From Corallococcus interemptor (GTDB lineage: Bacteria > Myxococcota > Myxococcia > Myxococcales > Myxococcaceae), in NCBI RefSeq assembly GCF_042231085.1, contig NZ_CP102579.1: a stretch of DNA of 64,000 bases; one strand, written 5' to 3'. The position numbers were made by a program, and so were the translations under genes. The notes below the pieces were generated by a model. The model had not been told where the DNA came from, did no database searches, and saw nothing but the letters and a program-made list of their open reading frames with translations. Of the stretch, positions 27,750 to 54,110 are shown piece after piece (the stretch's first letter is position 1; each line of letters starts with the position of its first letter).

Positions 27750-29351
27750 CTACTTGTTGATGCGCACCATGGCCACGTCGTAGTGGCGGTCCGTCACGTA
27801 GCCGTTCGCGGCCTTGCCGGGGCGGTACATGTTCCCGGTCTTGTCATCCACGTAGAAGCGGTTGTTCGGGTTCGTGTCCTTGCCCTTGCTGGCGTTGGTC
27901 GTGCCCGGGTCGTGGAACGTGTAGTAGGTGCGGCCCTTGTCGTCCACGCCGCGGCCCGTGATGGTCACGAAGTGGTCCGTGAGGCCGTCCGCGTTGTAGC
28001 TCGCGTCCTTGTGGCTGACGCCCACCACCACCGGCTTGCCCGCGTCCAACTGCTTGTCGATGTAGCTGCGGCCCTCGGCGGCCTTCTTCGAGTCCACCTT
28101 CAGCGCGCCGACGCTGTTCTCGCTCGTGCCCACCTGGATGCGGCGGTCCGGGCCCAGCACCGTGGCGCCGGAGTCGCGCGCCATCGCCGTCGCGGCCTTG
28201 AAGCACGCCGTGTCGCTCGCGGTGTAGCCGTGGCCGTTCTCGAACTGGCTGTAGTACGGCACCTTCACGTGCACGGCCGGCTTGTCCTTGGCCCCGGCCA
28301 CCTGCTGCGTGTCGGTGCGGTCCGCCTCCGTGGTGGGCTTGGACGTGTTCGTGCCCTTGCCCTCCGTGCGGCCCGGCTTCGAGTCGCCGCTCACGGACGG
28401 GGGAACCACGCCCGTGTTGGTGTTGGCCGGCTTCGTCGTGGCGCCCGACTTCTCCTGCTTCAGCATCGCGAGCGCGTCCTTCGCCTCCGACTTGAAGCGG
28501 TTGGCCACGCCCTTCTGCACGTCCTTGGAGCTGCCGGAGAAGTGCACCAGGGTGCCGTTGGCGTTGGTGCGGCCGCGCTCGGCGTAGATGTCCTTGATGA
28601 GCTGCTCGTCGCTCACCTTCGCGGGGTCGCGCCCGGCCAGCGCCTTCTTGAAGATGTCATCCGCCTTGCCCGGGCCGTGCTGCACGGAGGTGGACCAGGC
28701 CACGTCCCGCAGCGCCGCGGAGCGCTGATCCAGGTCGATGCCCGTCGCCTTCTTGATGTTGGCGGCGCCCACGTCGTAGTGCGTGGCCTTGATGTAGTCG
28801 TGCTGCGCCTTGTCGAAGCCCTTCGGGTCCTTCGCCGCGAGCTGCTTCCACGCGGCGGAGAACTCCGCGGTGCCCGGCTTGCTGCCCGACAGCGCCTTGT
28901 GGAACTCCGGGTTCGTCTTCTTCAGCGAGTTGACGAAGGACTGCGCCGAGCCGTTCGCGGAGGCGAACTGGTAGGAGCCATAGGACACGCCGCCCTTGTC
29001 GCCCTTGCCCGTGGACACGGTGCCAGGGCCGCGCGCCTCGTACTTGCGGCTCAGCCCGCCCAGCTCCCCGTTGGTCGCGCTGGTGGAGCCCCCGTTGGTG
29101 GCCGGCGTCGTCTTCCGCGCGCCGCTGGTGGACTGCGCGAAGCTGTCGCCCGACGTCTTCGCCCCGGCGCTCGACTTCGTCGTCCCCTTCGTGTCGAAGC
29201 CGTCCTGCACCTTCAGCGTCTGCCCGGCGAGGATCTTGTTCGGATCCTTGATGTTGTTCGCCTTGGCCAGCGCGTCGACGGTCGTGTTGTAGCGCTTCGC
29301 CAGGCCGGACAGCGTGTCGCCGGAGTTGACGCGGATGTTGGAGACGGTCAC
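27750..29351 (-). CDS. LysM domain protein with central lysozyme/transglycosylase-like region and C-terminal Cys/His (papain-like?) domain; no signal peptide
   Basis: GTG start with AGAGGGG RBS. N-terminal LysM ([37 protein letters not shown]). GVSYGSYQF block. C-terminal Cys (DTACFKAA) ... His (DHFVTITG). Confidence 0.6.
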
Positions 29352-29543: not shown

Positions 29544-30578
29544 ATGTCCAGGTTCCAACCGGAATTCAAAAGTGTGGCGTTGCTGTTTGCCATTTGCGTC
29601 ACGAGCGCGGTCACGGAGGCCTCGGCCCAGGGGTCCGAGGGACTCACGGGGGTCTATTCGAACAAGGGCGGGACGCTCGCCATCGTCGAGGGCAGCAACG
29701 AGACGCTGGTGCACTTCTCGGGTTCCTTCCCGCAGGGCAGCAGCGCGGGCACCTGCGATTGCGCCCTGGTGGTGCGGAAGAAGACAGCAACGAACTGGTC
29801 ACTTCAGCAGGCGGGCGAGGCGGACGCCTGGACGCTGCGCGTCAACCCCAAGCAGTTCGTGCTGGAGTCCGGTCCGTCACCGTCCTGTTGCGGGGCGGGC
29901 TACCCGGGCAGGGACACGTTCGCCCGGAGCACGGTCAAGCCGCTGGGCATCTGCAAGGTGAAGGTGTCCAAGGCGGGCTTCCACGCGTCGGACGCGGCCA
30001 ACACGCCGCGCAAGGCGTTCGTGGTGTCCGGCGACGCGGTGGAGGCGTACGTCGACCCGGTGGAGCCGGACTTCCTCGCCGCGCGCTTCCAGGGGCCCCA
30101 GAAGGCCACGGCGGGGCTGCTCAAGCGCGAGGACCTGGACTGCGCGGCGGAGTCGGCGCCCACGGCCACGAAGGCGCCGGTGTCCGCGGACAAGCTCCAG
30201 CCCTTCGCGGGGACGTGGGTGGAGCTGACGCGGCAGGGCAAGGGCTTCGTGGTGCTCAAGCCCTGCTCGGCCGCGACGCGCAGCTTCACCGTCAAGCCCG
30301 CGACAGGCGAGGTGGAGGTGCAGTTGGGCCAGGAGTCCACGACGCTGAAGGTGACGTCCGTGGAGCCCGGCAAGGGCGCCGGGGCCTGGGTGCTGGGGCT
30401 CACGGCCGCGGACGGCAAGCCGGAGGCGCTCCAGTGGAAGACGGCCAACGCCGCGAAGGGCACCGTGTCCGTGAACAGCCCGGACCTCTTCTCCCAGAGC
30501 CACGACTACGTGCGCCAGGAGAAGCAGTCCGCCTTCCCGTCCAAGCAGGAGACGGGGTGTGACGAGTACGAGCGCTAA
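29544..30578 (+). CDS. Secreted hypothetical protein
   Basis: AGGAGGG RBS; signal peptide (ALLFAICVTSAVTEASAQG); Cys-containing, no recognised domain. Confidence 0.55.
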   Translation: MSRFQPEFKSVALLFAICVTSAVTEASAQGSEGLTGVYSNKGGTLAIVEGSNETLVHFSGSFPQGSSAGTCDCALVVRKKTATNWSLQQAGEADAWTLRVNPKQFVLESGPSPSCCGAGYPGRDTFARSTVKPLGICKVKVSKAGFHASDAANTPRKAFVVSGDAVEAYVDPVEPDFLAARFQGPQKATAGLLKREDLDCAAESAPTATKAPVSADKLQPFAGTWVELTRQGKGFVVLKPCSAATRSFTVKPATGEVEVQLGQESTTLKVTSVEPGKGAGAWVLGLTAADGKPEALQWKTANAAKGTVSVNSPDLFSQSHDYVRQEKQSAFPSKQETGCDEYER

Positions 30579-39680: not shown

Positions 39681-40469
39681 TCATCCGCGAAGGTCATCCG
39701 CCTTGCTCACACGCCCTCGGAAACAGTTCGCCCGGTGCCACGCCAGCGCCGTGCGGTGCAGTGGGTCAATCCGCGTCAACGAGAGTCCGGGATTCAAGCC
39801 CAACCGCTGGGAGTCCTCCGGGGACAGGGCCGAGGAGATGACCATTCGTCCCCCGTCCTCAAAAGTGATGAACCCGCGGTCGAACGCGGCGTCGAGGTGG
39901 ACCGCCAGCAGGATGCCGTTGAACACGTTGAGGCGCTCCTGGTCGCTCTCACACTTCGCCCACGGTCTGATGTGGCTGGCGCGCAGGAGTTCGGGCTCGG
40001 AGAGTCCGGTGACCGCGCAGCGGCCCTCCCAATAGCGCAGAAGTCCCTCCCGGAAGAGGTCCTGCCCCACCCGCTGCACCGTGAGGCGCTCGACTTCGGT
40101 CGTCTGAGGCAGCTCCTTCGTGACGCGCTCGAACAGGTGGAACAGCTCGTCGGGCAACGTGCCCGAGAGTTGGTATGCGCGTCGGACCACGCGGTGAAGC
40201 TGCATGAGGTCCGCGACCCGCCGGGCCGCCGCAGCCCCTGAAGGCAACGCGGCGGAGGTCTCGCCGGTCAACGGAAGCAGTTCGGCCGCGACGGCTGGCT
40301 GTGAAAACGCGACGAGCCACGCATCATCCATGGCGCCCAGCCACAGCCGCAACGGGACCTGGGTACTCGCAAAGGACAGCCACGGGTCCACGGCCGTCTC
40401 CGGGACGTCAAAGCCGTTGTCCTGGGCGACCTTCTCCAGCAGCGACCTTTGGACCAGGGTGAGCGTCAT
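39681..40469 (-). CDS. HNH endonuclease (PF13391-like)
   Basis: RCAVTGLSEPELLRASHIRPWAKCESDQERLNVFNGILLAVHLDAAFDRGFITF. Start overlaps MTase stop by 4 bp. Confidence 0.75.
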   Translation of the reverse strand: MTLTLVQRSLLEKVAQDNGFDVPETAVDPWLSFASTQVPLRLWLGAMDDAWLVAFSQPAVAAELLPLTGETSAALPSGAAAARRVADLMQLHRVVRRAYQLSGTLPDELFHLFERVTKELPQTTEVERLTVQRVGQDLFREGLLRYWEGRCAVTGLSEPELLRASHIRPWAKCESDQERLNVFNGILLAVHLDAAFDRGFITFEDGGRMVISSALSPEDSQRLGLNPGLSLTRIDPLHRTALAWHRANCFRGRVSKADDLRG

Positions 40470-43400
40470 CGGGAACGCGAGGGATGGCGCTGCGAAGCAT
40501 GCGCTGGCGGCGGGACGAGCGGGGATTCGTATGCGCCGGTCCGGCTGGCGGCGGCCAGCGCATCATAGCGCTCGAGGATGAGGCGCTTCGTGCGGTACTC
40601 GCCATGCTTCTTCTCGTCGTTCCGTTTCACGATCGGGAAGGTTTCGAGGACGTAGTCCGTGTCGTCGCGCGAGAGGCCATAGAGGTGGAAGAAGGCGGCG
40701 TCGAGTTCGGCACGCAGGAGCGCACGGCGCTCGGGATCCCAGCGGAACGGCGGCCCCTCGAAGCCCGCGTCAGTCCCGAAGCCTTGAAGGTCCCAGGCCG
40801 TGTAGGTCAGCTCAACAACTCGGGGAAGGATCCACTCCGAGACGCTCTCGCTCATCGACCAACTACACTTCACCCCAAAGACTGCCGGCGGAAACACCGG
40901 AAGTTGCCTCATTGTGAAGTACTTGAGGCTCGTGCCACCCACTTTTTGTCGACAAGCATAGTCGAGGGCGAATGACGCCACGTTTGCGTAGAGAGAGACA
41001 GCCTCTGTTGGCCTGACCCTCGGCAGCATGAGCAAGAACTTGTCGCCCACGGCCGCACGCGGAATCAAACACGGAATTGCAGTGCGCCGATCTGTGCTAC
41101 GGCAGATGTCTCGCCAGCCGATAAACCAGTCCTGGGCCCAAACGCCCTTCATGCGTTCATAGACCTCCGTGGCGGCAACCCAGTAGTACGGGTGCGTGAG
41201 TCGATCTGGTTCGGCGTGCGCCGCGTCATCGAACTCGGGCAGTTTCCCCTGATTCTCCTGTGCCTGAGTCTGCCCCTCATACGTGCCGAACCGATGGTCG
41301 AACTGGTGGACCATCTTGGCCTCCATGAGAGGGAGCCAGATTTCCATCTCCTTCTTGAAGTGGTTGCCGTGCAGCCTGTAGCCAGCAGCCTCAAGACGCT
41401 CGCGAGACCAGAACAGGTCTGAGTCGTTCGCCATATGAATCATGGCCATGAAGCGTAATCCCCAGGGATTGCCGCCCGCCGTGTCATTCTCACGCCACAG
41501 CACGCCTGCGCGCCGATACATGCGCAGATTCAGCTCCGCGTCCCGCTGCGAGCGGAACGTCGGACAGGTCTTCGTGTTCGGATTGAGGAGTTCAAAGTCA
41601 GCGGAGGAAAGCGTGAAGTGCCTTGATGTATCGGCCAATGCCAACACCTGCCGCGCGAAGAACACGAGATCGGCGTTTTCAGTACCACCGCCACGGTCGA
41701 TGGTCAGCAGCGCGAACTTGAATGCGTGGTGGACGCCGGGAAAGACGAACTCCTCGTTCTCGAAGCCGAAGAACGACGCAAGTTCACGTCCGGAGATCAA
41801 CGTACCGAAGTACTCCTTGGTCGTATCGTCAGTGGCAAGCCCCGTGGGCACGATAAAGCCAGCACGCCCATTTCGGGCAGTTACGGTTCGGTTGTGCTCC
41901 GCGAACAGTGCATAGGTATTCACGTCACCCTTGCCGCAAAGAGGGAACCGGCCCGCCTGCCGCACGAAGTGGCTCTGTCCCTCTGCCTCGCGGCTGGCCT
42001 GGCTCCACTCCTCCCACAAGCGGGGGTCTTCCTCCGGCAGCTTCGCGATGAGCTTCTTCCTCACCGCCGCGTTCTCTGCGGACGCAATGGCCGCACTGCG
42101 CGACGCGAAGAACTCCTGCTCCTGCAACTTCACCCGCTCCCAGGGCGGGTTGCCCAACACGACGTCGAAACCGCCACGAGCGAAGACCTGCGGGAACGCG
42201 AGCTGCCAGTGGAAGAAGCCATACCGCCGAGTGAGCCCTCGCACCGTCTCGACCATCAGAGGGGACGGTTCGACCTCCCCGTCCCGCAGCAGCCGCCATC
42301 CATCCTCCGTCGGGGCAACCTCCACCACCTTCGCCGTCGGCGCGGGCTTCGGCCACACGAAGGTCGAGCACCAGGTGTCCGCGACGAGCTTCAGGTGGGC
42401 GAACGCCTTCGACTCCCGCAGGGCCTCCCAGTCCGCCTCCTTCTTCGCCAGGGCCGTGACGTCCAGGTCCTGCGCCGAATCGAGGGCCACCACGGCCTTC
42501 TCCAGCACCAGTGACTCCTCCCGGGCCACCCCAAGCGGCAACGAGGCCTGCTTCTTCGCCACCTTGTTGCGCTTCTTCAGCGCGCTGGCCGTCTTCCGGT
42601 CATCTTCGCCAATAGGCGCCCAGGCCTCGTCGGGGATGCCGCCGTCCATGAGCCCCGGCAGGGTGCCCAGCAGCGCGTTGCCGCACTGGACGTGGGAGTC
42701 CAGGAACGAGAGGGGAAGGCCGGGCTCGACGGCCTCCATCCACAAGCCCACCTTGCAGAGTTCCACCGCGAGAGGGTTCAGGTCGACGCCGAAGATGCAG
42801 CGGCTCACGACCTGGCGCAGGGCATGCTGGTACTGCTTCGGTGATGCGGTGCCCTTCGCTTCGTGTTGGGCCACCCGTGCAGCCAGCCGCCGCGCCGCCG
42901 CGAGCAGGAAGTGACCACTCCCGCACGCGGGATCCACCACCGTCAGCCCCAGCAGCGCCTCTGCCTTCGCGTCCGGACGCGCGGCCTCCGCGCGCTCCAT
43001 GACCGGCGTGAGGGCCGAGTCGAGCAGCACCTGCACGAGGCTGTCCGGCGTGTAGTAGCTCCCCGTCGTCTTCCGGGCGTGCCCCTTGCCCTCCGCGCCC
43101 TCGGCGAAGGTGAACTCACGGCCCCCGTTCACGACGCGCGGGGTGAGTTCGAGCAGGCTCTCGTAGACGCTCCCCAGTTCCTCCGGGCCCATGTCGCGCC
43201 AGTTCACGCGGGCCAGCCCGCCGGCCTCCTGCAGCCAGGACAAACGATAGAGCGCATGAAGGAAGAAGCGGTTCTCGATGCGGCCCGCGTCCAGGTCCCG
43301 GCACCGCGCGGGCGCGAAGATGCCCGCGAGCGCCGGCAGCCCGAGTGCCGGCTGTCCCGTGGCCAGCCCCCGGAAGGAGACCTTCACTGCCTCCCAGGCG

Positions 43401-44467
43401 TCGTGGTGGCGATCATGCGCGCTGCGGCGCACCACCCGCTCCCGCATTCCCTGGAGCGAGTAGCCGCCGGCATAGAGCGCCTTCGCCTCATCCGGGGTGC
43501 CCTCCGGATGCAAGAGCCCACGCTCCTCCACGGTCAACAGGAAGATCAGCCGGTAGACGAGCCGCAGGAGCTGCTGGAAGTAGTCGTGCTCCGTCACCGT
43601 CCCCTGGTCGAGCGCCTGACGCAGCGCCTGGTTGTCACGGTGGGCGAGGAACCCCTGCCCCAGCGACCGCAGCGCCGCCTCGACGCCATCGCGGAGCTGC
43701 TCCCGGGCCCGCGTCCCTTCCTCCCGTCCAAGGGCGCGCCATTGCTCGAGCGGGCATTCCGAAGATGCCTGTCCTGACCGGCCAAAGCGCGTCTGGTGCA
43801 TGAGCAGCCAGAGCGCGGCGAAGTCCGCGAACCGGCCGCCCGTGAAGATGGCCTGCAGGTCCACCTCCAGCCATGCGGGCCGGGTGAGGCTGACATTGTC
43901 GCGGAGCACGCGCAGCGTCAGCCCGTCCGTGACGAGCCCCCACATCGCGCCGTCGTTGGCGTTGAGGAACTCCTGACACAGGCCGAAGGGCGTCCGCCGC
44001 CGGGACTCCTCGCCAAAACTGGCCGAGAGCTTGTCGAGCGCGCTCTCCTTCGCGCCGGGTGGCAGCGGCCCGGCGATGACCACAGGCACTCTTCCATCGA
44101 GCGCCGCCCACCCGAGGGGGTACGAGCGCTCGCCGGAGGTGACGGTGCCCACCTGCTTCAATGACCCGAACCCGAACACCTTGGACAGCAGCCCGGTGAC
44201 GAAGTCCTCGGCGGCGGCCCGCGAGTCACCGCCCGCGGCCCGCGCGGCCACGAAGTCCCGCCACTTCGGCTCCGCGATGCGCCAATACCGGCCAATCTCG
44301 TCGCGGATCTGCAACCCCTTTTCGATGTCGTAGTCCGCGGGCGCCTGCCGGGGCGCCTCGAGCTGCGCCACCTTCGCGAGCCACTCGGGAGACAGGAGGC
44401 CGCCCTCGATGGCGAGCGCATCGAAGGCGAGCCGCGACTCGCGGCGGAGACGTCTCGACGCCATCAC
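40466..44467 (-). CDS. N6-adenine DNA methyltransferase, PglX/DrmMI-like (1333 aa)
   Basis: Catalytic motif IV NPPW (VVLGNPPWERV); SAM motif (VVDPACGSGHFLL); size and N-terminal region typical of BREX PglX / DISARM DrmMI. Confidence 0.8.
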   Translation of the reverse strand: MMASRRLRRESRLAFDALAIEGGLLSPEWLAKVAQLEAPRQAPADYDIEKGLQIRDEIGRYWRIAEPKWRDFVAARAAGGDSRAAAEDFVTGLLSKVFGFGSLKQVGTVTSGERSYPLGWAALDGRVPVVIAGPLPPGAKESALDKLSASFGEESRRRTPFGLCQEFLNANDGAMWGLVTDGLTLRVLRDNVSLTRPAWLEVDLQAIFTGGRFADFAALWLLMHQTRFGRSGQASSECPLEQWRALGREEGTRAREQLRDGVEAALRSLGQGFLAHRDNQALRQALDQGTVTEHDYFQQLLRLVYRLIFLLTVEERGLLHPEGTPDEAKALYAGGYSLQGMRERVVRRSAHDRHHDAWEAVKVSFRGLATGQPALGLPALAGIFAPARCRDLDAGRIENRFFLHALYRLSWLQEAGGLARVNWRDMGPEELGSVYESLLELTPRVVNGGREFTFAEGAEGKGHARKTTGSYYTPDSLVQVLLDSALTPVMERAEAARPDAKAEALLGLTVVDPACGSGHFLLAAARRLAARVAQHEAKGTASPKQYQHALRQVVSRCIFGVDLNPLAVELCKVGLWMEAVEPGLPLSFLDSHVQCGNALLGTLPGLMDGGIPDEAWAPIGEDDRKTASALKKRNKVAKKQASLPLGVAREESLVLEKAVVALDSAQDLDVTALAKKEADWEALRESKAFAHLKLVADTWCSTFVWPKPAPTAKVVEVAPTEDGWRLLRDGEVEPSPLMVETVRGLTRRYGFFHWQLAFPQVFARGGFDVVLGNPPWERVKLQEQEFFASRSAAIASAENAAVRKKLIAKLPEEDPRLWEEWSQASREAEGQSHFVRQAGRFPLCGKGDVNTYALFAEHNRTVTARNGRAGFIVPTGLATDDTTKEYFGTLISGRELASFFGFENEEFVFPGVHHAFKFALLTIDRGGGTENADLVFFARQVLALADTSRHFTLSSADFELLNPNTKTCPTFRSQRDAELNLRMYRRAGVLWRENDTAGGNPWGLRFMAMIHMANDSDLFWSRERLEAAGYRLHGNHFKKEMEIWLPLMEAKMVHQFDHRFGTYEGQTQAQENQGKLPEFDDAAHAEPDRLTHPYYWVAATEVYERMKGVWAQDWFIGWRDICRSTDRRTAIPCLIPRAAVGDKFLLMLPRVRPTEAVSLYANVASFALDYACRQKVGGTSLKYFTMRQLPVFPPAVFGVKCSWSMSESVSEWILPRVVELTYTAWDLQGFGTDAGFEGPPFRWDPERRALLRAELDAAFFHLYGLSRDDTDYVLETFPIVKRNDEKKHGEYRTKRLILERYDALAAASRTGAYESPLVPPPAHASQRHPSRSR

Positions 44468-47247
44468 TTCACCTCCGGGAGCAGCACGAAGACACCGATG
44501 ACATCCACCGGGAGCAGCGCCTTGACCGAGTAGCTTCCCCGGTCGCCTGCCGCCTCCCGGACGCGCCGGTGGTCCGCGAGCAGGGCCTGGGCCCGGCCCT
44601 CCGCCACGGCGGCGAGCTGCTCTCGCGACGACTCCACCAACGCGAGCGCCCGGGTGAGCTCGCGGTCACGCACGTGCGCAGGGGGATCCCCTGCGGGAGG
44701 GAGCGCAAGGAGCGCCAACGCCTCCGCCCCTTCACGAGGCGGGCCGCTCGCGCCCCATGAGACGGCCGTCGACTCCTCGACCAGCAGCGTGTGGGTCCGC
44801 GAGCCCTTCACCGTGGTGAGCTGGTGACGCGGATGCAGGAGCACCACCGTCGTGCGCTCCGTGACGCCGGAGGACTCCCAGCACCCGAGGCGGCCCAGGA
44901 CGGAAGGGTCGGTCGAGGTGCCGTCTCCGGCGGAGGTCAGGGTCCGCTCGAGCAAGGTCTCGGCCAGCACCGCCACGAGGGGATGGGCCCGCTGAACAAG
45001 TCGGCGGTGCTCGCCACCGGGAGGCTCGAAATCCACCAGCAGCGAGCCTGCCAGCCCTTCATTCTCCAGCCGCTCGCGAACCTCGGCCGGAAGCGCGGCG
45101 AGCTGTAGACGCACGCCGCGCTTGAGGCGCTCCGGCGCGGCGCCAAGCCGGGCCATGGCCCGTGAGACGAAGCGCTCGACGTCCTCCCGCCCGCCGATGG
45201 CCTGACGCACGCGCTCGTACTCGGGCAGGACGTCGCCGGGCCGCAGGCGCTTCTGCGCGAAGACGGTGCGGTTCTTCTGGGCCCGTTCGGCCGCGCTCTG
45301 CCACGTGGCCTCGATGGTGGCCGCCGCGTCTCCCCCGAAGTCGAGCATCGCCTGTCTGCCAGGCTTCCGATGCTTCAGCAGCACCGCGCGCATCAGCGTC
45401 TGCGTCAACGAGTGGCCCTCGTCGGGGAGCGGCACCGGCACCCCGAGTTCCCGGCGGATCCGCTCTGCCTTTCGCAGGATGACCTCGAGCACCGCGCCAT
45501 CGACGGGGTTGTTCTGACCGTAGAGGAGCGTCGCCCGGACGACTGGCCGGCTCTGGAGGTAGCGGTCCACGCGGCCTTCCCGCTGCTCATGCCGCATCGG
45601 ATTCCACGAGAGGTCGTAGTGGATGACCGCGTTGAAGGACTCCTGCAGGTTGACGCCCTCGGAGAGGCAATCGGTCGCGATGAGGAGGACCTTGCCTTCC
45701 TCAGCCCGCAGCGCCGCCACGGCCTCCCTGCGCTCGTCCTGCGTCAGCTCGCCCGTCACCACCTTGATCATCACGTCCGGGAACTGCTTCGCGAGGTGGG
45801 CGCCCAGGTAATGCGCCGTGGCGATGTAGCGGCAGAAGACGACGGGCGCGAAGTCCTCCCCGAGCAGCTCCTTCACATGCCCCACGAGGGTCTTGAGCTT
45901 CGGATCTCCCGACTGCCCGCTGAGCTCCTCGGCCTGGGCGATGAGCTTCTGGAGGTCCGCGTCTCCAGTCGCCGCCGGGGGCTCAAGATCATCCTCCGGG
46001 AGGGCGTCGTCGCCTCCGTCGAAGAGCCGCTCCTCCAGCTCCGCTTCAGCCTCTTCTCCTGGCGTCGCGTGGGTCCGCAGGGCCTGCACCGCGGCCCGTG
46101 GGCTCGACGCCACGCAGCGCATGAGGGCCAGCGTGCCCCAGAAATTCAGGCGCTGGCGCCGGGCATCCCCGCTGGCCGACTCGATGACGGTGGCGCAGTA
46201 GTCGAGCACCGCGTCGAAGAAGCGCTCCCAGGCGCCAGAGAGGGTGTACGTCAGCTCCCGGGTCTGCCGGTCCGGGAAGAGTTCTCCCTCTCGCCACTCG
46301 TCGAGATCCGGGCGTCGCCGCTGCACGAAGTGCCGGGCCAGGCGCTCGCGCAATGCGTTGCGCTCGTCCCCCTGCACCACTTCCAGCCGTTGGAACGCAG
46401 GGTCGAGCAAGCCGAGCAGCCGGTAGAAGCCCGCCTCGTCACCGCTGTGGGGCGTGGCCGTCAACAGCACGAGGTGACGGTCCGCGCGCTGCGAGAGGGC
46501 GCGCAGAAGCTCATAGCGCTGATGCCGTCCCTGACCCGTCGCCGCGCAGGTGTGCGCCTCGTCCACGATGACGAAGCCGGGGCAACTGCGGAGGAACTCG
46601 TCCCGGCGGTTCTGGCTCTTGATGTAGTCGAGGCTGACGACGGTGAAGGGATGTACCTCGAAGAGGCTCGTCGTCTGGGGGATTGCCTTTTCCAGGCGCG
46701 ACGCATTGGCCGCCGTGACGGCGACCGCACGCAGGTGGAAGCCCACGTCCAGCTCATGCACCCACTGCTCCACGAGGTGTGGCGGACACAGCACGCTGAA
46801 CCGGTCCACGTCGCCGCGGTCCAGCAGTTCGCGGACGATGAGCGCCGCCTCGATGGTCTTGCCAACACCAACGTCGTCAGCCACCAGCAGGCGCACCGTC
46901 TCCTGCCGCAAGGCCATCATCAGCGGCACGAGCTGGTAGGCGCGGGGCTGGATGGAGATCTGCCCGAAGCCGCGGAAGGGACCCGCGCCCCGTCGCATCG
47001 AGAGCGTGAGCGCGTCACGCAGCAACTGCGCCCCATCCTGGCTCGCGCGCTGGGCCAGCGTCGGCGGGGGGAAGGCGGCGTCCGACACCGGCTCCGCCTC
47101 CAGCGGGAGGTGAATGAGGATGGCGTCGTCCTCGCTGCCAGCCACCGGCCGGACCCGGAGGGTCTCCGCACTGCCGCCGTTGAGGACGATCCACTCCCGG
47201 CCACGAGCCCGTACGAGGCTCCCCGGGCTCCAGGTGATGGTGTTCAT
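44464..47247 (-). CDS. SNF2-family helicase (DrmD-like)
   Basis: Walker A VGVGKT; DEAH box IVDEAH; LLTATP; helicase C motifs ([24 protein letters not shown]). Overlaps MTase start by 4 bp. Confidence 0.8.
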
Positions 47248-47268
47248 GGTGTGGTGGTACCCCGCCGG

Positions 47269-50200
47269 TCAGCCCTTGCCCAGCGCCTTCGACAGCTCGA
47301 CGAAGCGCCCCGCCCACTCTTGCTCCTCATCGCCGAAGACCAGGGACGTCAATGACAGGGCATCAAAGCGCTCCAACAAGGAGGGTGCTGGTGCTCCAAG
47401 ACACACGACGACCCGATCCTGTTTCCATACGAAATCGGCGCCCTCCCAGTCCGTGGCCTCGGGCCGCGGCAGCCCCTTCCTGTCGAGGCGATGCAGGAAC
47501 CGCACGCGGGGGCCCCCGCCGAGGAGTTCGGCGGGCGTGACCGGAATCGGCTCGCGAAGCTCGGTCACGCCACGGGCCAGACGCAGGAGCAGCTCTCGGA
47601 CGGGAACGTCACGGCGGTCGATCTGCTCATGGTCCGGCTGGTTGTAATAGGACATGAGACAGCGATAGCAGGCCGCGACGCAGTGCGTGCCCGCCTTGTC
47701 CTTCAGCTCCGCCGCCGCCGCCGGAACCCCCTGCTCAAGGTCGAAGTGCATGACCTCCAGCGCTCGCCGGGCCACCACTGCGAGCGCCTCGGGCTGGGCG
47801 AGCACCTGCGTCAGCACGCCTGCCCCGCCCTCGGTCGCCTCGTAGAAGAAGATGCCGCGCCGGTCGTCACGGTTTGGCATGGGCTCGCCGAGCACCTCCG
47901 CCTCCTCAAGTTGGAAGTGCGCCTGCAAGCCACGGAGGAGCGCGTACTGGAGCGTCGCCATCGACCGCTCGTCCAGCGCGGCGGCGGGCCGCACGAGCAG
48001 CGCGTTCTTCCGGTCCTGCACCATTGGCACGATGCGCTGGCGGGGGTTGCCGACGTCGTTTCCATCCTTCTCTTCGTCCCCCCCCTTCTCCCAATCACCG
48101 CTCACGGGATCGATGGTGAAGCCGTGCTCGCTGCGCCGAGCACGCCGGCGCAGCCCGAGGTTCAACCGGGTGATGGTGGCGCTGGGGCCGTACGTCAGCC
48201 ACAGCAACCCGCCGGACGCATGCCTGGCCACGCCCTCGCGCACGTCCGGGCGCCCCTCACGGTCGGCCCAGGCGAAGGTGGTCTGCAAATCGAACCCTTG
48301 CCGCTGCCGCTCCTCGTCATTGGCGGTGATGCGTTCAGCGCGCTTCGTACCGACATTGTCGATACGGAAGACCTCGCGCACGTGAAGGGCGTCCCCCAAC
48401 GGCTGACGGCACGCATGGCAGACCGATGGGTCCACGGAGAAGTGCCCTGCCCCACAGCCGCGGCAGAGCCTTACCGACAGCGTGGGCAACCTGGCGTCCG
48501 CACCACCCGTCGGATGGGAGAGCGAGAGCAGCGCCCGCACGACACGATAGGCACGCCCCTCGTGGTAGATGAGGCTGCGGGGACCGAACTCCGACAGCGC
48601 CAGGAAGCGCGGTCTCTGGAGATAGGTCTGCCGGCCCCGCCCATCTTCGGTCGCCGGCACGTACGCCATGAGCGGCAATCGCGGGAAGTTGTACCCGGGA
48701 AGGAAACCCTCCGTCGCGAGGTAGCGGTACGTGTAGAAGTCGCTGCGTCCGGAGTCCGTCCCCTGATCCAACAGGTTGAGCTGGTTGACGGCCTCGCCGT
48801 GTCTTCGTTCGGCGGCCCGCCTCTCTGTCGCCCGGCTGGTATGCGCATCAATGACGCGGCGTGACTCCTCTTTCTGGAGGTGTGCCGCCTCGTAGAGGCC
48901 CCTCCAGCGGCGGAAGGCCTCGTCGAAGCGCTTGAACGCGTTCGACGCCGTGCGCCGGGCCAGCGCTTCGATACCGTCGAACCAGGGCGCTGCTTCGGGG
49001 GTGAGTTCGTCCTCCAGCATGGACAAGAAGCGCGTCATGGCCTCCGCGCTTCGCGCCGTCACTTCGGGCGCGGAGAGGGCCTGGGTCAGGTCGGCCTGGA
49101 GCGGCCACTCCGGGCGCTGTTCGAGCCTCACGAGCTTCGCAATGGAGTCATCAAGCGGACGCGCCGTGTTGGCGAGCCAGATGGCGTGCAGGTGGCTTTC
49201 GACAAGGTCCTGGTTCGCCAGCTCCAGCATCGGGGGCCGCACGACGCCATGCACCATGCCCGGCGGGTCCCGGAAGAAGTACTGGTCATGTGGGCTCTGG
49301 GCCGCACAGTAGGTGAGCACCAGGGCCGCCTGCCCGCTGCGCCCGGCGCGACCGCTGCGTTGGGCGTAATTGGCAGGCGTCGGCGGCACGTTGCGCAGAT
49401 AGACGGTGTTCAACTGCGAGATGTCGACCCCCAGCTCCATCGTCGGGCTGCAGAAGAGGACGGGAAGGAATTCCTTCGGTTCGTCGAGCTGGGCAAGCGT
49501 CACGGCGTCGGCGGCAAGCTCCTGCCGCTCCTTGTCACCGTAACGAAAGCGTTTCTCCCGGATGATCCGCCGGGCGTCCTCGACCTGGGCGGTGTGTTCG
49601 CGCGCTTCGAACCCGAACAGCGGGTGCGAGGGGGATGCGAGCAGCTTCGCCAGGGACCGGTAGAGGTCGCGGAAAAAGCGGTTGATCCGATCAGGCCGTT
49701 CCGGGTCCTCCCCGCTGCCCAGCTTGAAACGCACGTGGGCGTCCTTCAGCCGCCAACCCATGTGCCCATCGAAGGGCGTAGGCTCTTCAATGACCAGGCC
49801 ACGGGCGGCGACGAGCAGTACCTGGATGATCTGCTCCAGGTCGGCGGCGCTCTGCGTGCGGGCACGCGCATCTCCCCCCCAATGCCGGCTCGACCGGAGC
49901 GCCTTTCCCAACGCGCTGCGGCTGCCACCACGTACGACGAGGTCCTCGTCGCGCATGGTCAGCCCTTTGCGGGATGGTGCGGACACCATCAGCCAGCGGG
50001 AGGGCCGCGTCTTCTCGTCGCTCCCGAAGGCCCAGGGAGTCCGGAGCTGGGAGAATGCATTGGCCCGAAGCTGCTCCACCGAGGTGGCGTTCAGCACCGA
50101 CGATTCGACGGCCATCCACTGACGCATGTGATCAAACAGCACACGGTAGACGCCTCGGCGCACGTCGGGCGTGGCCTCGCGGAGCAAGGCCGGCGCATGG

Positions 50201-52527
50201 GCGAAGGCAGACTCGTCCGAGACGATCTCATCCAGGTGCTCGTATTCGACTTCAACCAGGCGGAGCTGCTCGAGGTTGGGATTGGTGTACCGCCAGCCGC
50301 GCCGTTGGTCGAACCACACACGGTAGGCGAGGACCTCGCGCAGGGACTTCTCCGCCGACAGCCGGGCGAAAGGCTTCGCTTCAGGATCCTTCATCCATTC
50401 GCCGCGCAACCCTCTGTCGTCGAGGCGATGGAAGCCCAGCGCGCGCTGCTGCGCCTCCCCGAGTTCCGCGCTCGAGAGGCCCTTTTCGCCTGCGGCTGCG
50501 AGCGCACCGAGAAAGCCCGCGCGCAAGATGCAGACGAAGAGGAAGTCGTTGAAATGGCCTGCCTGTAGCGCGGCGTCCTGCCGGTTATCAGAGAAGCCGA
50601 GCATCTTCCGGGTAAATACATCCAGGCCCGATCCAGCTCCGTGCATCCATCGCAGGGAGCTCAACGTCAACACCGTCGTCGCGGAGCTGCGCCCTTCCGC
50701 TGTCAGCGATGCCAGCCGCGTGCGGTCGCGCGAGGTACCCCCATGGACCTCCTTGCACACGACGCAGAAGCCGAAGCGGCCGGGGAGGAACCACATGGGC
50801 TGCCCTTCGGATCCCGTCTTGCCGGTAGGCGTGACGCGATGGAGTTCAAGCCTCCGATGCCGACGAGAAGCCTTGAGCGCGTTCTTGCCATCCAGCCACG
50901 ACTCTGGATAGGTCTCATCCTTGCCCTTGAAGTCCCACTCGGGGTCTTCCGTCGCATCCCGTGTCAGGAATCCGAACCGCTCTCCTTCTTCATTTTCGGC
51001 GGCGGACGTCTCCTCTTCCTCGTCGTCGTCACGGCCAGGAGGAGCATCATCGATGGAGCGGTCGATGAACTCGAGCGCCAGCCCGTCCGTCTTGAGCTTT
51101 ACCGGGTGATACTCATGGCCGCACTGGCGGCAGAAATGGACCGCATAGAGCCGCTTCTGCTCCGCCCCAGGGAGGAACTTCTGCGCATCGACCGTTACTG
51201 CCCGGGCGCCAGGCGGCTCAAGGGTCGCGTATGCGTTCGAGGCACCTGAGATGAACTGGTGGAGTTTGAAGGCGAAGAAGGGATTCGTCGCCCCCGTCTT
51301 GTCGCCGCGACGATCCTTCTCCGGCTGACTGCTCAGGAGGAGGAAGTGGCGCAGGCGCTCGCGACAGAGGCTCTCCGGGCAGCCTGACTCCTGGGCCAGG
51401 AGCTGGACCGCGGCGCTGACGGAGAGGGGCCTCGCGCGGCGCCATGTCTGGTCGTCGGGGTTGACTGTAATGCCAAGGCGGGTCTCCACCCAGATGGAGA
51501 GCGGATGGGAGGTCAACACCGAGTCACGCACGTCACGCGCGAGTGGCTGCTCGAGCGCCTTCGCGAGTGAGGGCATCAGCGCTGCCACCTGATGGGGGCC
51601 CGTCGTCTGGCGACGCAGCCACTCGGTGATGACGTGCGTCTCCGGCACCTGCGCGCCGAAGAGCTGTGAGGCGACTCGGCTCACGACGGAGCTGGTACTC
51701 CTGCCCTGCTGCAGGGAGTCCGCGCTCGCCATCGTGGCTGACGTACCGATGCACTGAAGCCCTTGCGGAGCGAGGCGTTCCCGAACGCGTCGAACGAGGA
51801 GCGCCACATCCGCCCCCTGGCGTCCACGGTAGGTATGGAGTTCATCGAGGACGAGAAAGCGCAACCCCTCGCAGTTCGCCATCACCTGCCGATCGACGGG
51901 ATCCTGCCGCGTCATCAGCAGCTCAAGCATCATGAAGTTCGTCAGGAGGATATCGGGTGGATTGCGCGCAATGGCTTCCCGCTCCTGTTGCTTTTCCGTG
52001 CCGGTATAGCGAGCGTAGGTGACCGGCGCATCGCCGGACTTGCCCAGATACTTCTCAAGTTCCTCGAGCTGCGAGTTGGCCAGGGCGTTCATCGGGTAGA
52101 TGATGATGGCGCGTGTTCTGCGAGGAGCCCCGGCGTCACGCTCCTTCAGCACGGCGCTGACGATGGGCACGAAGAAGCACAGGGATTTACCTGAGCCTGT
52201 GCCGGTGGTGACGACGTAGCTCGCCCCCGTCGTGGCCAGGATCGCCGCGAGTTCCTGGTGCTTGTGCAGCGGAAGAGGATGGCCCGCAGTCGAGCGGAAC
52301 AGGTCGGGGCACTTCGGGTGCAGGACATCGCCCTTGACCAGTTCAGCCTGCGTGCGGCCTTCCTGGTAGTGCGGGTTCAGCTGGATCAGGGGCTCCGGCC
52401 AGTAGGTCCCTGCCTCATAGAAGGCCTTGAGCTTCGTGCGCAGGTCCGCGGCGCGAATCGTGGTGAATGATGTGGCGAACCGCTCGTACTCGCCGATGAC
52501 GCTGTCCCGCAGCGCGAAAACGTCCAT
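47269..52527 (-). CDS. 1752-aa DEAD/DEAH helicase fused to DUF1998 (DrmA-DrmB fusion-like / DruE-like)
   Basis: Walker A TGTGSGKS; DEAD-like LVLDELHTYRG; TSATM; helicase C (AQRSGRAGRSG). Cys clusters CRQCGH...FCVVCKE, CRGCGAGHF...CHACRQ and C-terminal CVAACYRCLMSYYNQPDHE typical of DUF1998 zinc ribbon. Confidence 0.8.
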   Translation of the reverse strand: MDVFALRDSVIGEYERFATSFTTIRAADLRTKLKAFYEAGTYWPEPLIQLNPHYQEGRTQAELVKGDVLHPKCPDLFRSTAGHPLPLHKHQELAAILATTGASYVVTTGTGSGKSLCFFVPIVSAVLKERDAGAPRRTRAIIIYPMNALANSQLEELEKYLGKSGDAPVTYARYTGTEKQQEREAIARNPPDILLTNFMMLELLMTRQDPVDRQVMANCEGLRFLVLDELHTYRGRQGADVALLVRRVRERLAPQGLQCIGTSATMASADSLQQGRSTSSVVSRVASQLFGAQVPETHVITEWLRRQTTGPHQVAALMPSLAKALEQPLARDVRDSVLTSHPLSIWVETRLGITVNPDDQTWRRARPLSVSAAVQLLAQESGCPESLCRERLRHFLLLSSQPEKDRRGDKTGATNPFFAFKLHQFISGASNAYATLEPPGARAVTVDAQKFLPGAEQKRLYAVHFCRQCGHEYHPVKLKTDGLALEFIDRSIDDAPPGRDDDEEEETSAAENEEGERFGFLTRDATEDPEWDFKGKDETYPESWLDGKNALKASRRHRRLELHRVTPTGKTGSEGQPMWFLPGRFGFCVVCKEVHGGTSRDRTRLASLTAEGRSSATTVLTLSSLRWMHGAGSGLDVFTRKMLGFSDNRQDAALQAGHFNDFLFVCILRAGFLGALAAAGEKGLSSAELGEAQQRALGFHRLDDRGLRGEWMKDPEAKPFARLSAEKSLREVLAYRVWFDQRRGWRYTNPNLEQLRLVEVEYEHLDEIVSDESAFAHAPALLREATPDVRRGVYRVLFDHMRQWMAVESSVLNATSVEQLRANAFSQLRTPWAFGSDEKTRPSRWLMVSAPSRKGLTMRDEDLVVRGGSRSALGKALRSSRHWGGDARARTQSAADLEQIIQVLLVAARGLVIEEPTPFDGHMGWRLKDAHVRFKLGSGEDPERPDRINRFFRDLYRSLAKLLASPSHPLFGFEAREHTAQVEDARRIIREKRFRYGDKERQELAADAVTLAQLDEPKEFLPVLFCSPTMELGVDISQLNTVYLRNVPPTPANYAQRSGRAGRSGQAALVLTYCAAQSPHDQYFFRDPPGMVHGVVRPPMLELANQDLVESHLHAIWLANTARPLDDSIAKLVRLEQRPEWPLQADLTQALSAPEVTARSAEAMTRFLSMLEDELTPEAAPWFDGIEALARRTASNAFKRFDEAFRRWRGLYEAAHLQKEESRRVIDAHTSRATERRAAERRHGEAVNQLNLLDQGTDSGRSDFYTYRYLATEGFLPGYNFPRLPLMAYVPATEDGRGRQTYLQRPRFLALSEFGPRSLIYHEGRAYRVVRALLSLSHPTGGADARLPTLSVRLCRGCGAGHFSVDPSVCHACRQPLGDALHVREVFRIDNVGTKRAERITANDEERQRQGFDLQTTFAWADREGRPDVREGVARHASGGLLWLTYGPSATITRLNLGLRRRARRSEHGFTIDPVSGDWEKGGDEEKDGNDVGNPRQRIVPMVQDRKNALLVRPAAALDERSMATLQYALLRGLQAHFQLEEAEVLGEPMPNRDDRRGIFFYEATEGGAGVLTQVLAQPEALAVVARRALEVMHFDLEQGVPAAAAELKDKAGTHCVAACYRCLMSYYNQPDHEQIDRRDVPVRELLLRLARGVTELREPIPVTPAELLGGGPRVRFLHRLDRKGLPRPEATDWEGADFVWKQDRVVVCLGAPAPSLLERFDALSLTSLVFGDEEQEWAGRFVELSKALGKG

Positions 52528-52740
52528 GCGTCCCAGTCTCCCCTCAAGAGCCCCTGGAGGCTATCGCTCGCCATGAAGGCCGCCCAGCAGTCAAATGCAG
52601 AAGACTGGATTCGAGCCATGGCAGGCCGCACGCTGAGTGTGCCCGACCAGAAGCGTCATCAGCGGAGAAGGGGTATTGCGCGGCTGAATCTGGGTCGGAG
52701 GGCGTCGTGTGCGCCCCCTGTTGAACCGCGAATGCCGCAC

Positions 52741-52766
52741 TGTGCTCCTTCAGGGAAAGGAGCACA
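52741..52766. terminator. Perfect 10-bp stem / 6-nt loop hairpin 18 nt downstream of the 268-aa gene stop (no U-tract)
   Basis: tgtgctcctt-caggga-aaggagcaca. Confidence 0.35.
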
Positions 52767-52783
52767 GGACAAACAGGAGGCGC

Positions 52784-53473
52784 TCAGCCCCGGGCGGCGC
52801 GGGCGTCACGGCCCCGGGCTCGGGCGGCTTTGGAGAGCAGGTCGCTCCCCTTCTCCTCGCCCTTCATCCATTCCTTCATCGCGGGCACCACCTGCTTGCT
52901 CCAGGCGCGGCCGGCGCGCACGGCCAGGAAGTCCTGCACCAGCGCGTCCACGATGGCGGAGAGCTTCTCGGTCAACTCCAGACGCTCGGAGAGCTGATCA
53001 TCCTCTTCCTCCGTCATGAGCGCGGGCAGCTTGGCGGCGCGGATGTCCAGGAACTCCGAATCCAGGGTGACTTCGTACTCGCGCTCGCCGTGCGACAGGC
53101 GCAGCCGCGCCTGCGACACCAGCAGGCCCCGGTCCAGCGAGTGGCGCACGTTCTCCGAATACGGCGCCAGCGTTCCCTTGGCGCTCATCTCCGTGACGTC
53201 GCCCGCCACGCCCCGCAGCACCACCTTGCCCAGGAAGAGGACGACGACACCCGCGCCGTCGTGCTCGACCAGCGGGTCGCCCGACTCCGAGCGCCACAAC
53301 AGCCACGTCATGAACTCGCGGCCCAGGTAGGCCCGGCCGCGCAGGAGCTGTTCGCGCGCCTTGCCCTTTTCGACCTCGGCCTCGTCCTTCTCCTCCTCCG
53401 TGGCGGCGCCGTCCACGCCGACATCGCCCCGCGCGAACGCCGCCTCTTCCCTCGCCTGCTCACGCCTCGCCAT
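52784..53473 (-). CDS. Hypothetical protein (Glu-rich N-terminus; 3' end forms island-flanking repeat)
   Basis: ORF, ATG at 53473; no recognised domain. Confidence 0.5.
   Translation of the reverse strand: MARREQAREEAAFARGDVGVDGAATEEEKDEAEVEKGKAREQLLRGRAYLGREFMTWLLWRSESGDPLVEHDGAGVVVLFLGKVVLRGVAGDVTEMSAKGTLAPYSENVRHSLDRGLLVSQARLRLSHGEREYEVTLDSEFLDIRAAKLPALMTEEEDDQLSERLELTEKLSAIVDALVQDFLAVRAGRAWSKQVVPAMKEWMKGEEKGSDLLSKAARARGRDARAARG
52790..52870. repeat. Direct repeat copy B (inside 3' end of 268-aa gene)
   Basis: See copy A. Encodes C-terminal ...KGEEKGSDLLSKAARARGRDARAARG. Confidence 0.7.
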
Positions 53474-54110
53474 GGGCGCCCTCCACCGAAGCCGTCGCCG
53501 GCAGGTCCATGCCAATGAGCTCCGCCGTGGGGCCCAGGGCCTTCTCGTCGATGCCCGCGCGCTGCGCCATGGACGCGGGAGTGATGCCAATCACCTTCAC
53601 CGCCAGGGCGCCTTCCAGCGCCACGCAGATCTCATCCACCGTCTTGCGCGACGCGGCCCAGACCTGCACCGTGTGCGTCTTCAGGTTCCACGTCACGTCC
53701 AGCGTGCTGGTGCGCGGCACCGCGCGCTGACGCAGGAGCTGCTTGAGCTCCGCGCGCTGCTTGTTCTTCTCCGCGCGCGCGGGCGGCCGGCCGTTCTCCT
53801 TGGCGAAGGCGGCGGACCACTTGTCCAGCTCCGACTTCATCATCGACGCGGGCACCTTCAGCGTGTCGATGCGGAAGGCGAAGAGGGCGTACTCGCCATA
53901 GAAGAGGTTGCCGGTGGCGAACTCGGAGGACTCCGGGTTCTCCAGCTCGACAAACCCCGCGGCGCGCTCCTCCTCGGAGCGGCGGTCGATGGGCTCGAAT
54001 GCATGGGACTTGAGTCCCTTGGTCATCCAGCGCTTGACGTCGGACGGCGCATCCTTGGCCGGCTCGGTCCGGAAGCGCGAAAAGGTCACGGCACCACGTA
54101 GGACAGGCAT
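53460..54110 (-). CDS. Hypothetical protein, weakly RdgC-like N-terminal region
   Basis: MPVLRGAVTFSRFRTE...FEPID resembles RdgC N-terminus; low certainty. Confidence 0.4.
   Translation of the reverse strand: MPVLRGAVTFSRFRTEPAKDAPSDVKRWMTKGLKSHAFEPIDRRSEEERAAGFVELENPESSEFATGNLFYGEYALFAFRIDTLKVPASMMKSELDKWSAAFAKENGRPPARAEKNKQRAELKQLLRQRAVPRTSTLDVTWNLKTHTVQVWAASRKTVDEICVALEGALAVKVIGITPASMAQRAGIDEKALGPTAELIGMDLPATASVEGAHGEA

Follow-up and report, generated by a model that had tools for sequence, protein, structure and literature searches.

Is a single polypeptide that joins a superfamily 2 (SF2) helicase core to a DUF1998 module a natural fusion of the DISARM proteins DrmA and DrmB, or does it belong to a different defense system? 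The question is raised by the gene for a 1752-residue protein in a 64,000-nucleotide stretch of Corallococcus interemptor DNA (assembly GCF_042231085.1, contig NZ_CP102579.1; this whole stretch is called the window throughout), which a preliminary description had likened to such a fusion. The evidence assembled here indicates that the gene is armC, which codes for the YprA-family helicase of a predicted Corallococcus anti-phage operon of the ARMADA Type I class, a reading to which we attach a probability of roughly 90%. ARMADA systems have been defined (Bell et al. 2025, PMC12458937) as operons built around a YprA-family helicase; they have a BrxHII-like SNF2 protein and a PglX-like methyltransferase in common with DISARM, while the nearest relative of their helicases is DruE.

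Identity of the helicase and its operon

The predicted protein is 100% identical to MBZ4372325.1/WP_223762343.1 from Corallococcus sp. AS-1-6, and the former accession (JAIQDE010000007.1, K8612_11765) is entered in Table S1 of PMC12458937 as an "ARMADA Type I helicase". Membership of the ARMADA Type I clade is hence assigned by looking up the identical sequence in that table and not by a tree of our own. The 2025 ARMADA/YprA literature already contains this gene: architecture, resemblance to a DrmA-DrmB fusion, kinship with DruE and accession.

The gene-neighborhood agrees with this assignment. In the usual Type I arrangement the YprA homolog comes first, a BrxHII-like helicase second and a PglX-like methyltransferase third (PMC12458937). 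The window has this very order, with armC followed by armA, coding for a BrxHII/DrmD-like SNF2 ATPase, and by armB, coding for a PglX/DrmMI-like methyltransferase (PADLOC DrmMI, 2e-64). Gene order and domain series are both those of the published ARMADA Type I ArmC (representative WP_108720193.1), whose central CxxC-rich zinc module, single zinc insert of the OB region, DUF1998 and Vsr-like C-terminus recur in the window protein. The start of armA lies 21 nt past the armC stop codon, armB overlaps armA by 4 bp, and a gene for an HNH_2 nuclease comes last; armC is co-transcribed with these closely spaced or overlapping genes. The catalytic motifs of the helicase ArmC, of the ATPase ArmA, of the methyltransferase ArmB and of the HNH protein are all intact in a motif scan. 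No match to UvrD or GajB was found in the next genes after armB (the HNH_2 gene and then a sitBAI-like cassette), consistent with the absence of ArmD from Type I systems. This sets the window apart from the Type II ArmABCD system of E. coli NCTC 12900 / EDL933, whose ArmA (SNF2), ArmB (NPPW methyltransferase) and ArmC (a DUF1998-containing YprA helicase that also has a Vsr-type domain) are homologous and are specified in the order armA-armB-armC, followed by armD (RelE-like plus GajB-like UvrD helicase), whereas the window order is C-A-B, with no ArmD and the HNH gene in last place.

A genome search recovered 469 species-representative loci that encode relatives of ArmC, of which 80 were kept for locus comparison. 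An armA homolog lies directly downstream of the helicase gene in 77 of these 80, and an armB homolog follows the SNF2 gene in 69, most of the exceptions being cut by a contig end. Wherever they occur, the partner genes share the strand of the helicase gene and keep their sequence, and the armC-armA-armB order recurs on an Agrobacterium plasmid. On the upstream side of armC, a 268-residue protein shows no family match, no PADLOC match and no homolog in the related loci; its gene was accordingly dropped as a candidate member of the system.

One rival reading is that the gene is a Druantia DruE helicase operating with Druantia partners in a Type III-like system. When the ArmC family profile is run against the PDB, the closest solved relatives are 9tu7 (3e-54) and 9wae (6e-38), followed by MrfA (2e-28) and then Lhr. 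Judged by size, by deposit name and by the Druantia cryo-EM preprints of 2026, 9tu7 and 9wae are probably DruE; if so, DruE is the family with solved structures that is nearest to ArmC by sequence. The best PADLOC matches of ArmC are likewise DruE3 and DruE1 (about 1e-86), and ARMADA helicases have been placed nearest to those of Druantia (Bell et al., PMC12458937). The two also share a build, since Type III DruE has an MrfA-like core (RecA1, RecA2, OB, CON and a zinc module) with extra zinc modules and a cap, as does ArmC. Against this, the DruE models match ArmC only in 2–5 separate stretches, and PADLOC 2.0 predates ARMADA, so that DruE was simply the nearest label available. The partner of DruE is DruH, and neither an SNF2 protein nor a methyltransferase works with it. 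Neither DruH nor any other Druantia partner is found among the flanking genes scanned, and the genes downstream of armC instead match DrmD/DpdE, DrmMI and HNH models, the first two kinds being retained at the frequencies given above. The C-terminus of ArmC is Vsr-like and gives no PLD family match, in contrast to the tandem PLD-like domains of Type III DruE, and the sequence is filed under ARMADA Type I in Table S1 of PMC12458937. The Druantia reading is thus largely refuted by gene context and is in our estimate highly improbable. The likeness to DruE and DrmB drawn in the preliminary description holds at the level of fold and family, and fails as a system assignment and as a claim of novelty.

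A Dpd system was also considered and rejected: the DpdJ matches on ArmC are weak (84 bits against a cut-off of 800), the MZB cysteines are present, unlike in DpdJ, and no DpdA, DpdB or DpdC model matches any of the flanking genes scanned. As a separate observation on annotation, the PADLOC model PDLC02853, labelled DpdE, matches ArmA over its full length (5e-182), while NCBIfam DpdE scores 200 bits against a cut-off of 500. Tools that use PDLC02853 may therefore mislabel ARMADA Type I loci as Dpd.

Domain anatomy of ArmC and the fusion question

The gene lies on the minus strand as a single open reading frame (ORF) with all of the motifs listed in the preliminary description, which gave no strand; a plus-strand location was rejected, as that reading is riddled with stop codons. 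Pfam recognizes DEAD (residues 90–267, 4.5e-27), Helicase_C (1018–1065, 1.5e-09) and MZB/DUF1998 (PF09369, 1526–1624, 3.4e-10) in the translation, which bears out both the union of a helicase core with DUF1998 in one polypeptide and the DUF1998 homology of the C-terminal half. The positions of these and other features are collected in Table 1.

Table 1. Features of the armC locus; positions refer to the window and residue numbers to the respective predicted protein
Feature	Position	Strand	Residues and motifs	Evidence
armC	47269..52527 (including stop codon)	minus	1752 residues, ATG start	ORF list, translation
ArmC RecA1 lobe	51727..52260	minus	90-267; TGTGSGKS 108-115 (Walker A GSGKS 111), DELH 228, SAT 263	Pfam DEAD, motif scan
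ArmC central beta-rich zinc-binding module, between RecA lobes	50737..51144	minus	about 462-597; CRQC 466/469, CVVC 588/591	Cys conservation, AF2
ArmC RecA2 lobe	49138..49647	minus	about 961-1130; motif VI QRSGRAGR 1056	Pfam Helicase_C, motif scan
ArmC second Cys4 cluster, zinc module inserted in OB region	48409..48465	minus	1355-1373; CRGC 1355, CHAC 1370	Cys conservation, motif scan
ArmC MZB/DUF1998 domain	47656..47952	minus	1526-1624; three-Cys coil C1616-x3-C1620-x2-C1623	Pfam
ArmC Vsr-like (PD-(D/E)xK superfamily) domain	47272..47502	minus	about 1676-1752; diverged at family-conserved polar positions	fold search
armA, SNF2/BrxHII/DrmD-like ATPase	44464..47247	minus	927 residues; GVGKT 127, DEAH 229, QREGR 555	Pfam SNF2-rel_dom and Helicase_C, PADLOC
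armB, PglX/DrmMI-like N6-adenine DNA methyltransferase	40466..44467	minus	1333 residues; DPACGSG 512, NPPW 773	Pfam Eco57I and N6_Mtase
Terminal HNH_2 nuclease gene	39681..40469	minus	262 residues; gene overlaps armB by 4 bp	Pfam HNH_2 7.3e-13
SitB-like protein	37936 to about 39378	minus	type I signal peptide (MFMRWSWVIVLLLLPGAGGAQE)	
Lipoprotein	35757-37946	minus	729 residues; lipobox LLTAGC, D...ExK-like motif at C-terminus	
Putative immunity gene	34426-35760	minus	444 residues; 4-bp overlap	

The long ORF could in principle be an artefact of assembly or sequencing that joined two genes, a concern raised in the preliminary description. The same architecture of 1750–1790 residues, at 100% query coverage, is seen in nearly all of the best 120 homologs; relatives are encoded at the 469 genome loci, and near full-length matches occur in 68 plasmid records. 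Nearly all of the 80 loci kept for comparison match from query residue 1 to about 1750 at 50–58% identity. The best 120 database relatives come from many phyla and from independent assemblies, complete genomes among them; nearly all measure 1724–1825 residues (four are longer, up to 2183), and they cover 99–100% of the query at 57–59% identity, the closest reaching 82%. Codon bias is uniform along the ORF, with a third-codon-position GC content (GC3) of 0.82. Hence, an artefact has a negligible chance of being the explanation.

ArmC is an SF2 helicase of the YprA/MrfA family, in which RecA1, RecA2 and OB-CON-DUF1998 are combined in one polypeptide, as is characteristic of the YprA-family member of ARMADA Type I. 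Its N-terminal RecA1 lobe is followed by the central Cys4 β-rich zinc module and a helical insert; after RecA2 and a further helical region comes the OB-CON-MZB(DUF1998) canopy, which harbors the second Cys4 insert, and the C-terminal domain has the Vsr fold. Residue conservation was read from an alignment of 119 full-length homologs, in which RecA2 is the most conserved block of the family. The four cysteines of the central module (466/469/588/591), the four of the second cluster (1355/1358/1370/1373) and the three of the MZB coil (1616/1620/1623, in CVAACYRCLMSYYNQPDHE at residues 1616–1634) are each retained in 119 of 119. Two zinc sites have been given as characteristic of ARMADA Type I helicases (PMC12458937): a central module that separates RecA1 from RecA2 and holds two or more CxxC motifs, and one ZBM inserted in the OB region. 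ArmC has both, in the form of one Cys4 site between the RecA lobes and one in the OB region.

An AlphaFold2 (AF2) model was built for residues 450–1645, with a mean predicted local distance difference test score (pLDDT) of 67.6 and a predicted template modeling score (pTM) of 0.47. Within it, residues 462–597 are strand-rich at a pLDDT of about 77–86; this central module is the probable counterpart of the β-barrel ZBM described in PMC12458937. RecA2 and the MZB coil fall below a pLDDT of 50. A Foldseek search of the model against the PDB returned MrfA as its sole match (E 3e-3). Neither fold search returned the 9tu7 or 9wae chains, perhaps on account of structure libraries older than those entries.

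The C-terminal part of the protein departs from the preliminary description in three respects. The CRGC...CHAC cluster had been counted as part of the DUF1998 module; the Pfam MZB match begins only at residue 1526, some 150 residues further on, and the cluster is therefore a separate zinc insert of the OB region. Nor does DUF1998 hold a C-terminal Cys4 cluster: ArmC has no other cysteine between residues 1373 and 1616, and the DUF1998 coil has three, against the four closely spaced cysteines of MrfA. Searched alone against the PDB with phmmer, the MZB stretch gave nothing useful, and its three cysteines could not be aligned to the four of MrfA. Finally, the protein does not end in DUF1998, as residues from about 1676 to 1752 form an additional Vsr-like domain. 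MrfA/YprA itself (6znp) is a protein of about 750 residues without large inserts or a nuclease domain, which acts in repair with MrfB and not, like ArmC, from a methyltransferase operon.

Does the one-piece build nonetheless point to DISARM? In DISARM class 1 (7s9w) the helicase and DUF1998 are specified by separate genes and the PLD nuclease DrmC follows, whereas ArmC is one ORF; the locus would have to be a class 1 variant in which DrmA and DrmB were fused and DrmC was replaced by the HNH nuclease. The DrmA models of PADLOC match ArmC in the RecA2 lobe only (5.8e-16), NCBIfam DrmA scores 14 bits against a cut-off of 999, and DrmA has an N-terminal EVE-like domain and a trigger loop, its sequence relation to ArmC being limited to RecA2. 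No DrmB model matches, and neither a PLD domain nor DrmC was detected by Pfam or PADLOC in any operon gene. Among the PDB matches of the ArmC family profile at E <= 0.01 there is neither a DrmA nor a DrmB chain, in contrast to the strong matches to DruE-type chains and MrfA. A DISARM variant is therefore very unlikely.

The comparative background points the same way. Throughout the YprA family, fusion of OB-CON-DUF1998 to the helicase is the typical state, with MrfA, DruE, DpdJ and ArmC all fused and DISARM the only branch that is consistently split (PMC12458937). The one-piece ArmC is thus the family norm and adds no evidence for a DrmA-DrmB partnership, so that the inference of an obligate partnership from a natural fusion does not stand. 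Moreover, DISARM/Dpd and ARMADA/Druantia fall into separate defensive clades of the published YprA tree, which implies that the fused state is ancestral and not a secondary fusion of DrmA with DrmB. The resemblance of both ArmC and DruE to a DrmAB fusion has already been described in a second preprint.

The Vsr-like domain, the terminal HNH gene and a possible cargo slot

The C-terminus of ArmC has a Vsr-like fold according to a fold search, in line with the C-terminal Vsr-type domain of ARMADA Type I. Neither a profile of the domain searched against PDB sequences nor Pfam scans of 36 members taken singly revealed a Vsr or DUF559 signal; only chance TIM-barrel matches came up. Across the 119 homologs the domain has the consensus LPxPD-x-EP...LVWR-x-HY...GFEV, the conserved residues being D1690 (116 of 119), E1692 (85), R1702 (111), H1704 (105), Y1705 (116), G1725 (116) and E1727 (97). 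Set beside the E. coli Vsr pattern LPGRPD...FTHGCFWH...GWRVLIVWE, D1690 would presumably correspond to the catalytic Asp51 and H1704 to a catalytic His, a correspondence drawn from the sequence pattern. The window protein, its C. interemptor twin and the 82%-identical metagenomic relative instead read PE-A-TD...FVWK-Q-DR...SLTS, that is, E, T, K, D, R, S and T at the seven positions in the order given, and in these seven family positions the window protein differs from the published ARMADA Type I ArmC. The divergence is concentrated in this domain: its identity is 0.27 between the window ArmC and the other homologs and 0.47 among those homologs, a ratio of 0.57, as against 0.73–0.88 in every other ArmC domain. 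In a comparison with the 82% relative, the ratio of nonsynonymous to synonymous substitution rates (dN/dS) is about 0.19 for the domain and 0.09 for the whole gene, both figures being rough with dS near saturation. From these substitutions and rates, the Vsr-like domain of the Corallococcus lineage is probably non-catalytic yet maintained. For ARMADA Type I the Vsr-type domain is predicted to have catalytic activity, with the mark "active?" from the authors of the ARMADA study themselves (PMC12458937). For a non-catalytic domain there is a precedent in the PLD-like domains of E. coli DruE, which lack catalytic motifs and were dispensable in one study.

The second potential nuclease of the operon is the product of the terminal HNH_2 gene. 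Its C-terminal half is an HNH domain of the VcaM4I type (6yex_A, 3.3e-21 for this sequence by itself and 1.3e-32 when the family profile is used), VcaM4I being a modification-dependent enzyme (6yex), while its conserved N-terminal 120 residues have no family match. In 50 related loci the sequence extends for 2.9 kb or more past the methyltransferase gene, and 41 of them have an HNH_2 homolog, as does the Agrobacterium plasmid, where the helicase is 46% identical to ArmC. HNH homologs were traced back to their loci in four cases: two belong to complete ARMADA Type I operons, one has a pair of Eco57I-type methyltransferases encoded upstream, and the contig of the fourth is too short for a judgment. 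Compensation of the Vsr-like divergence by a neighboring HNH gene was considered and rejected, as loci with the canonical consensus also carry an HNH gene, adjacent or not.

Among 43 related loci with the HNH gene and a complete methyltransferase gene, the two are adjacent in seven, as in the window, and 1.8–3.0 kb apart in 31. The content of the gap was checked for Septu in three loci, and in each of them the ATPase PtuA and the HNH protein PtuB are encoded between the methyltransferase and HNH_2 genes with 4-bp overlaps (L009, 21978–24005; L016, 22042–24076; and the P0189 contig; PtuA by PADLOC at 1e-88 to 1e-102). Other cargo in the same slot comprises HNH plus DpdK-like genes in L081, DUF2326 in L083, a YhcG-type nuclease in L084 and an SMC-like ATPase on the Agrobacterium plasmid (L085). 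Neither Septu nor the HNH gene is mentioned in those parts of the text and supplements of PMC12458937 that were available.

These observations suggest a picture that we offer tentatively and rate at somewhat less than an even chance. There may be a large ARMADA Type I clade with a four-gene core in which the terminal HNH protein is the true DNA-cutting effector, the armB-HNH gap serves as a translationally coupled cargo slot (for Septu PtuAB, SMC-like/DUF2326 ATPases or other nucleases) and the Vsr-like domain of Corallococcus is non-catalytic but selected.

Several points weigh against the reading of the locus as an ARMADA Type I operon, or against parts of it. As far as we know, none of the ARMADA proteins has been assigned a methylation motif, a DNA substrate or a cleavage activity. 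The full-length match of NCBIfam DrmD to ArmA reaches 304 bits against a cut-off of 610. Of the searches made with the C-terminal domain, only the fold search points to Vsr, which the HMMER profiles detect neither in Pfam nor in the PDB, and the purifying selection on the diverged domain (dN/dS about 0.19) means that it may retain function. BrxA-like and MarR-like inserted domains have been attributed to the ARMADA Type I family (PMC12458937); given the mediocre AF2 model, they count as putative in ArmC. The ARMADA classification itself comes from a preprint, and of its types only Type II has been tested experimentally. The terminal HNH gene, whose role we infer, also distinguishes the window from the published Type I, as it is not mentioned in the available part of the text of PMC12458937.

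Surroundings of the operon and proposed mechanism

In the region from about 34400 to 53600 of the window, GC3 is 0.82–0.88 in the ARMADA operon as against 0.93–0.98 in most flanking genes, and overall GC falls to 0.63–0.66 around 40–42 kb and 49–52 kb. Two of the three sitBAI-like genes measured (35757–38249 and 37936–39693) share the GC3 range of the operon. This composition is consistent with the horizontal acquisition of the island; there is no tRNA gene in the window and no integrase was noticed among the genes scanned. No sigma-70 promoter-like site was found in the two stretches scanned for it (39200–39800 and 52400–52900).

Directly downstream of the operon on the minus strand (34426–39378) is a probable myxobacterial sitBAI polymorphic-toxin cassette, composed of genes for a SitB-like protein, a lipoprotein and a putative immunity protein (Table 1). 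The lipoprotein gene overlaps the SitB-like gene by exactly 11 bp, the same sitB/sitA overlap as reported in M. xanthus (PMC5562445). None of the three proteins has a Pfam, NCBIfam or PADLOC match, and a 67%-identical SitB-like gene lies upstream of the helicase in Myxococcus sp. Y35 (L021). The overlapping ORFs of 582, 830 and 444 residues after the HNH gene were considered as parts of the ARMADA system and rejected, given their sitBAI features and their absence from 79 of the 80 loci. Further along, a bacterial homolog of the eukaryotic major vault protein (30575–33187, minus strand; MVP_shoulder, 5.8e-45, plus Vault repeat families) adjoins a DUF5953 protein (33434–34264, plus strand; 2.9e-116). 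The gene at 27750–29351 on the minus strand codes for a protein with an N-terminal LysM and a C-terminal domain like VgrG3 of the type VI secretion system (2.1e-53), possibly a peptidoglycan-targeting effector.

By analogy with characterized relatives, a mechanism may be sketched for the operon. ArmB would methylate a motif in the host DNA and so mark it as self. ArmC could load on single-stranded or 3'-tailed DNA of the invader and translocate 3' to 5' while its OB-CON-MZB canopy holds the strand in a clamp, as in MrfA and DruE, and the zinc modules aid substrate recognition or assembly. DruE unwinds 3'-tailed duplex DNA, SftH of the MrfA family is a 3'-to-5' helicase; the canopy of OB-CON-DUF1998 has been proposed to clamp a DNA strand (PMC12458937). 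ArmA might remodel or track duplex DNA. Cutting of the DNA would then afford a direct, non-abortive defense, as measured for ARMADA Type II in E. coli, where all of the genes, the Walker motifs of ArmA and ArmC and the NPPW motif of ArmB are needed; deletion of armC sensitizes enterohemorrhagic E. coli (EHEC) to phages (second preprint). With the family-conserved Asp, Glu, His, Tyr and Glu missing from the Vsr-like domain of ArmC in the Corallococcus lineage, cleavage there would more likely fall to the terminal HNH protein.

What remains new in the locus is modest, namely the HNH gene with the cargo slot that precedes it and the divergence of the Vsr-like domain. As a complete four-gene Type I operon with intact enzyme motifs, it is a reasonable candidate for the first experiments on Type I; it comes from a cultured strain, and the myxobacteria include genetically tractable species. 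The HNH gene, the nested Septu and other cargo, and the diverged nuclease domain of ArmC provide handles on the question of which ARMADA protein cuts DNA.

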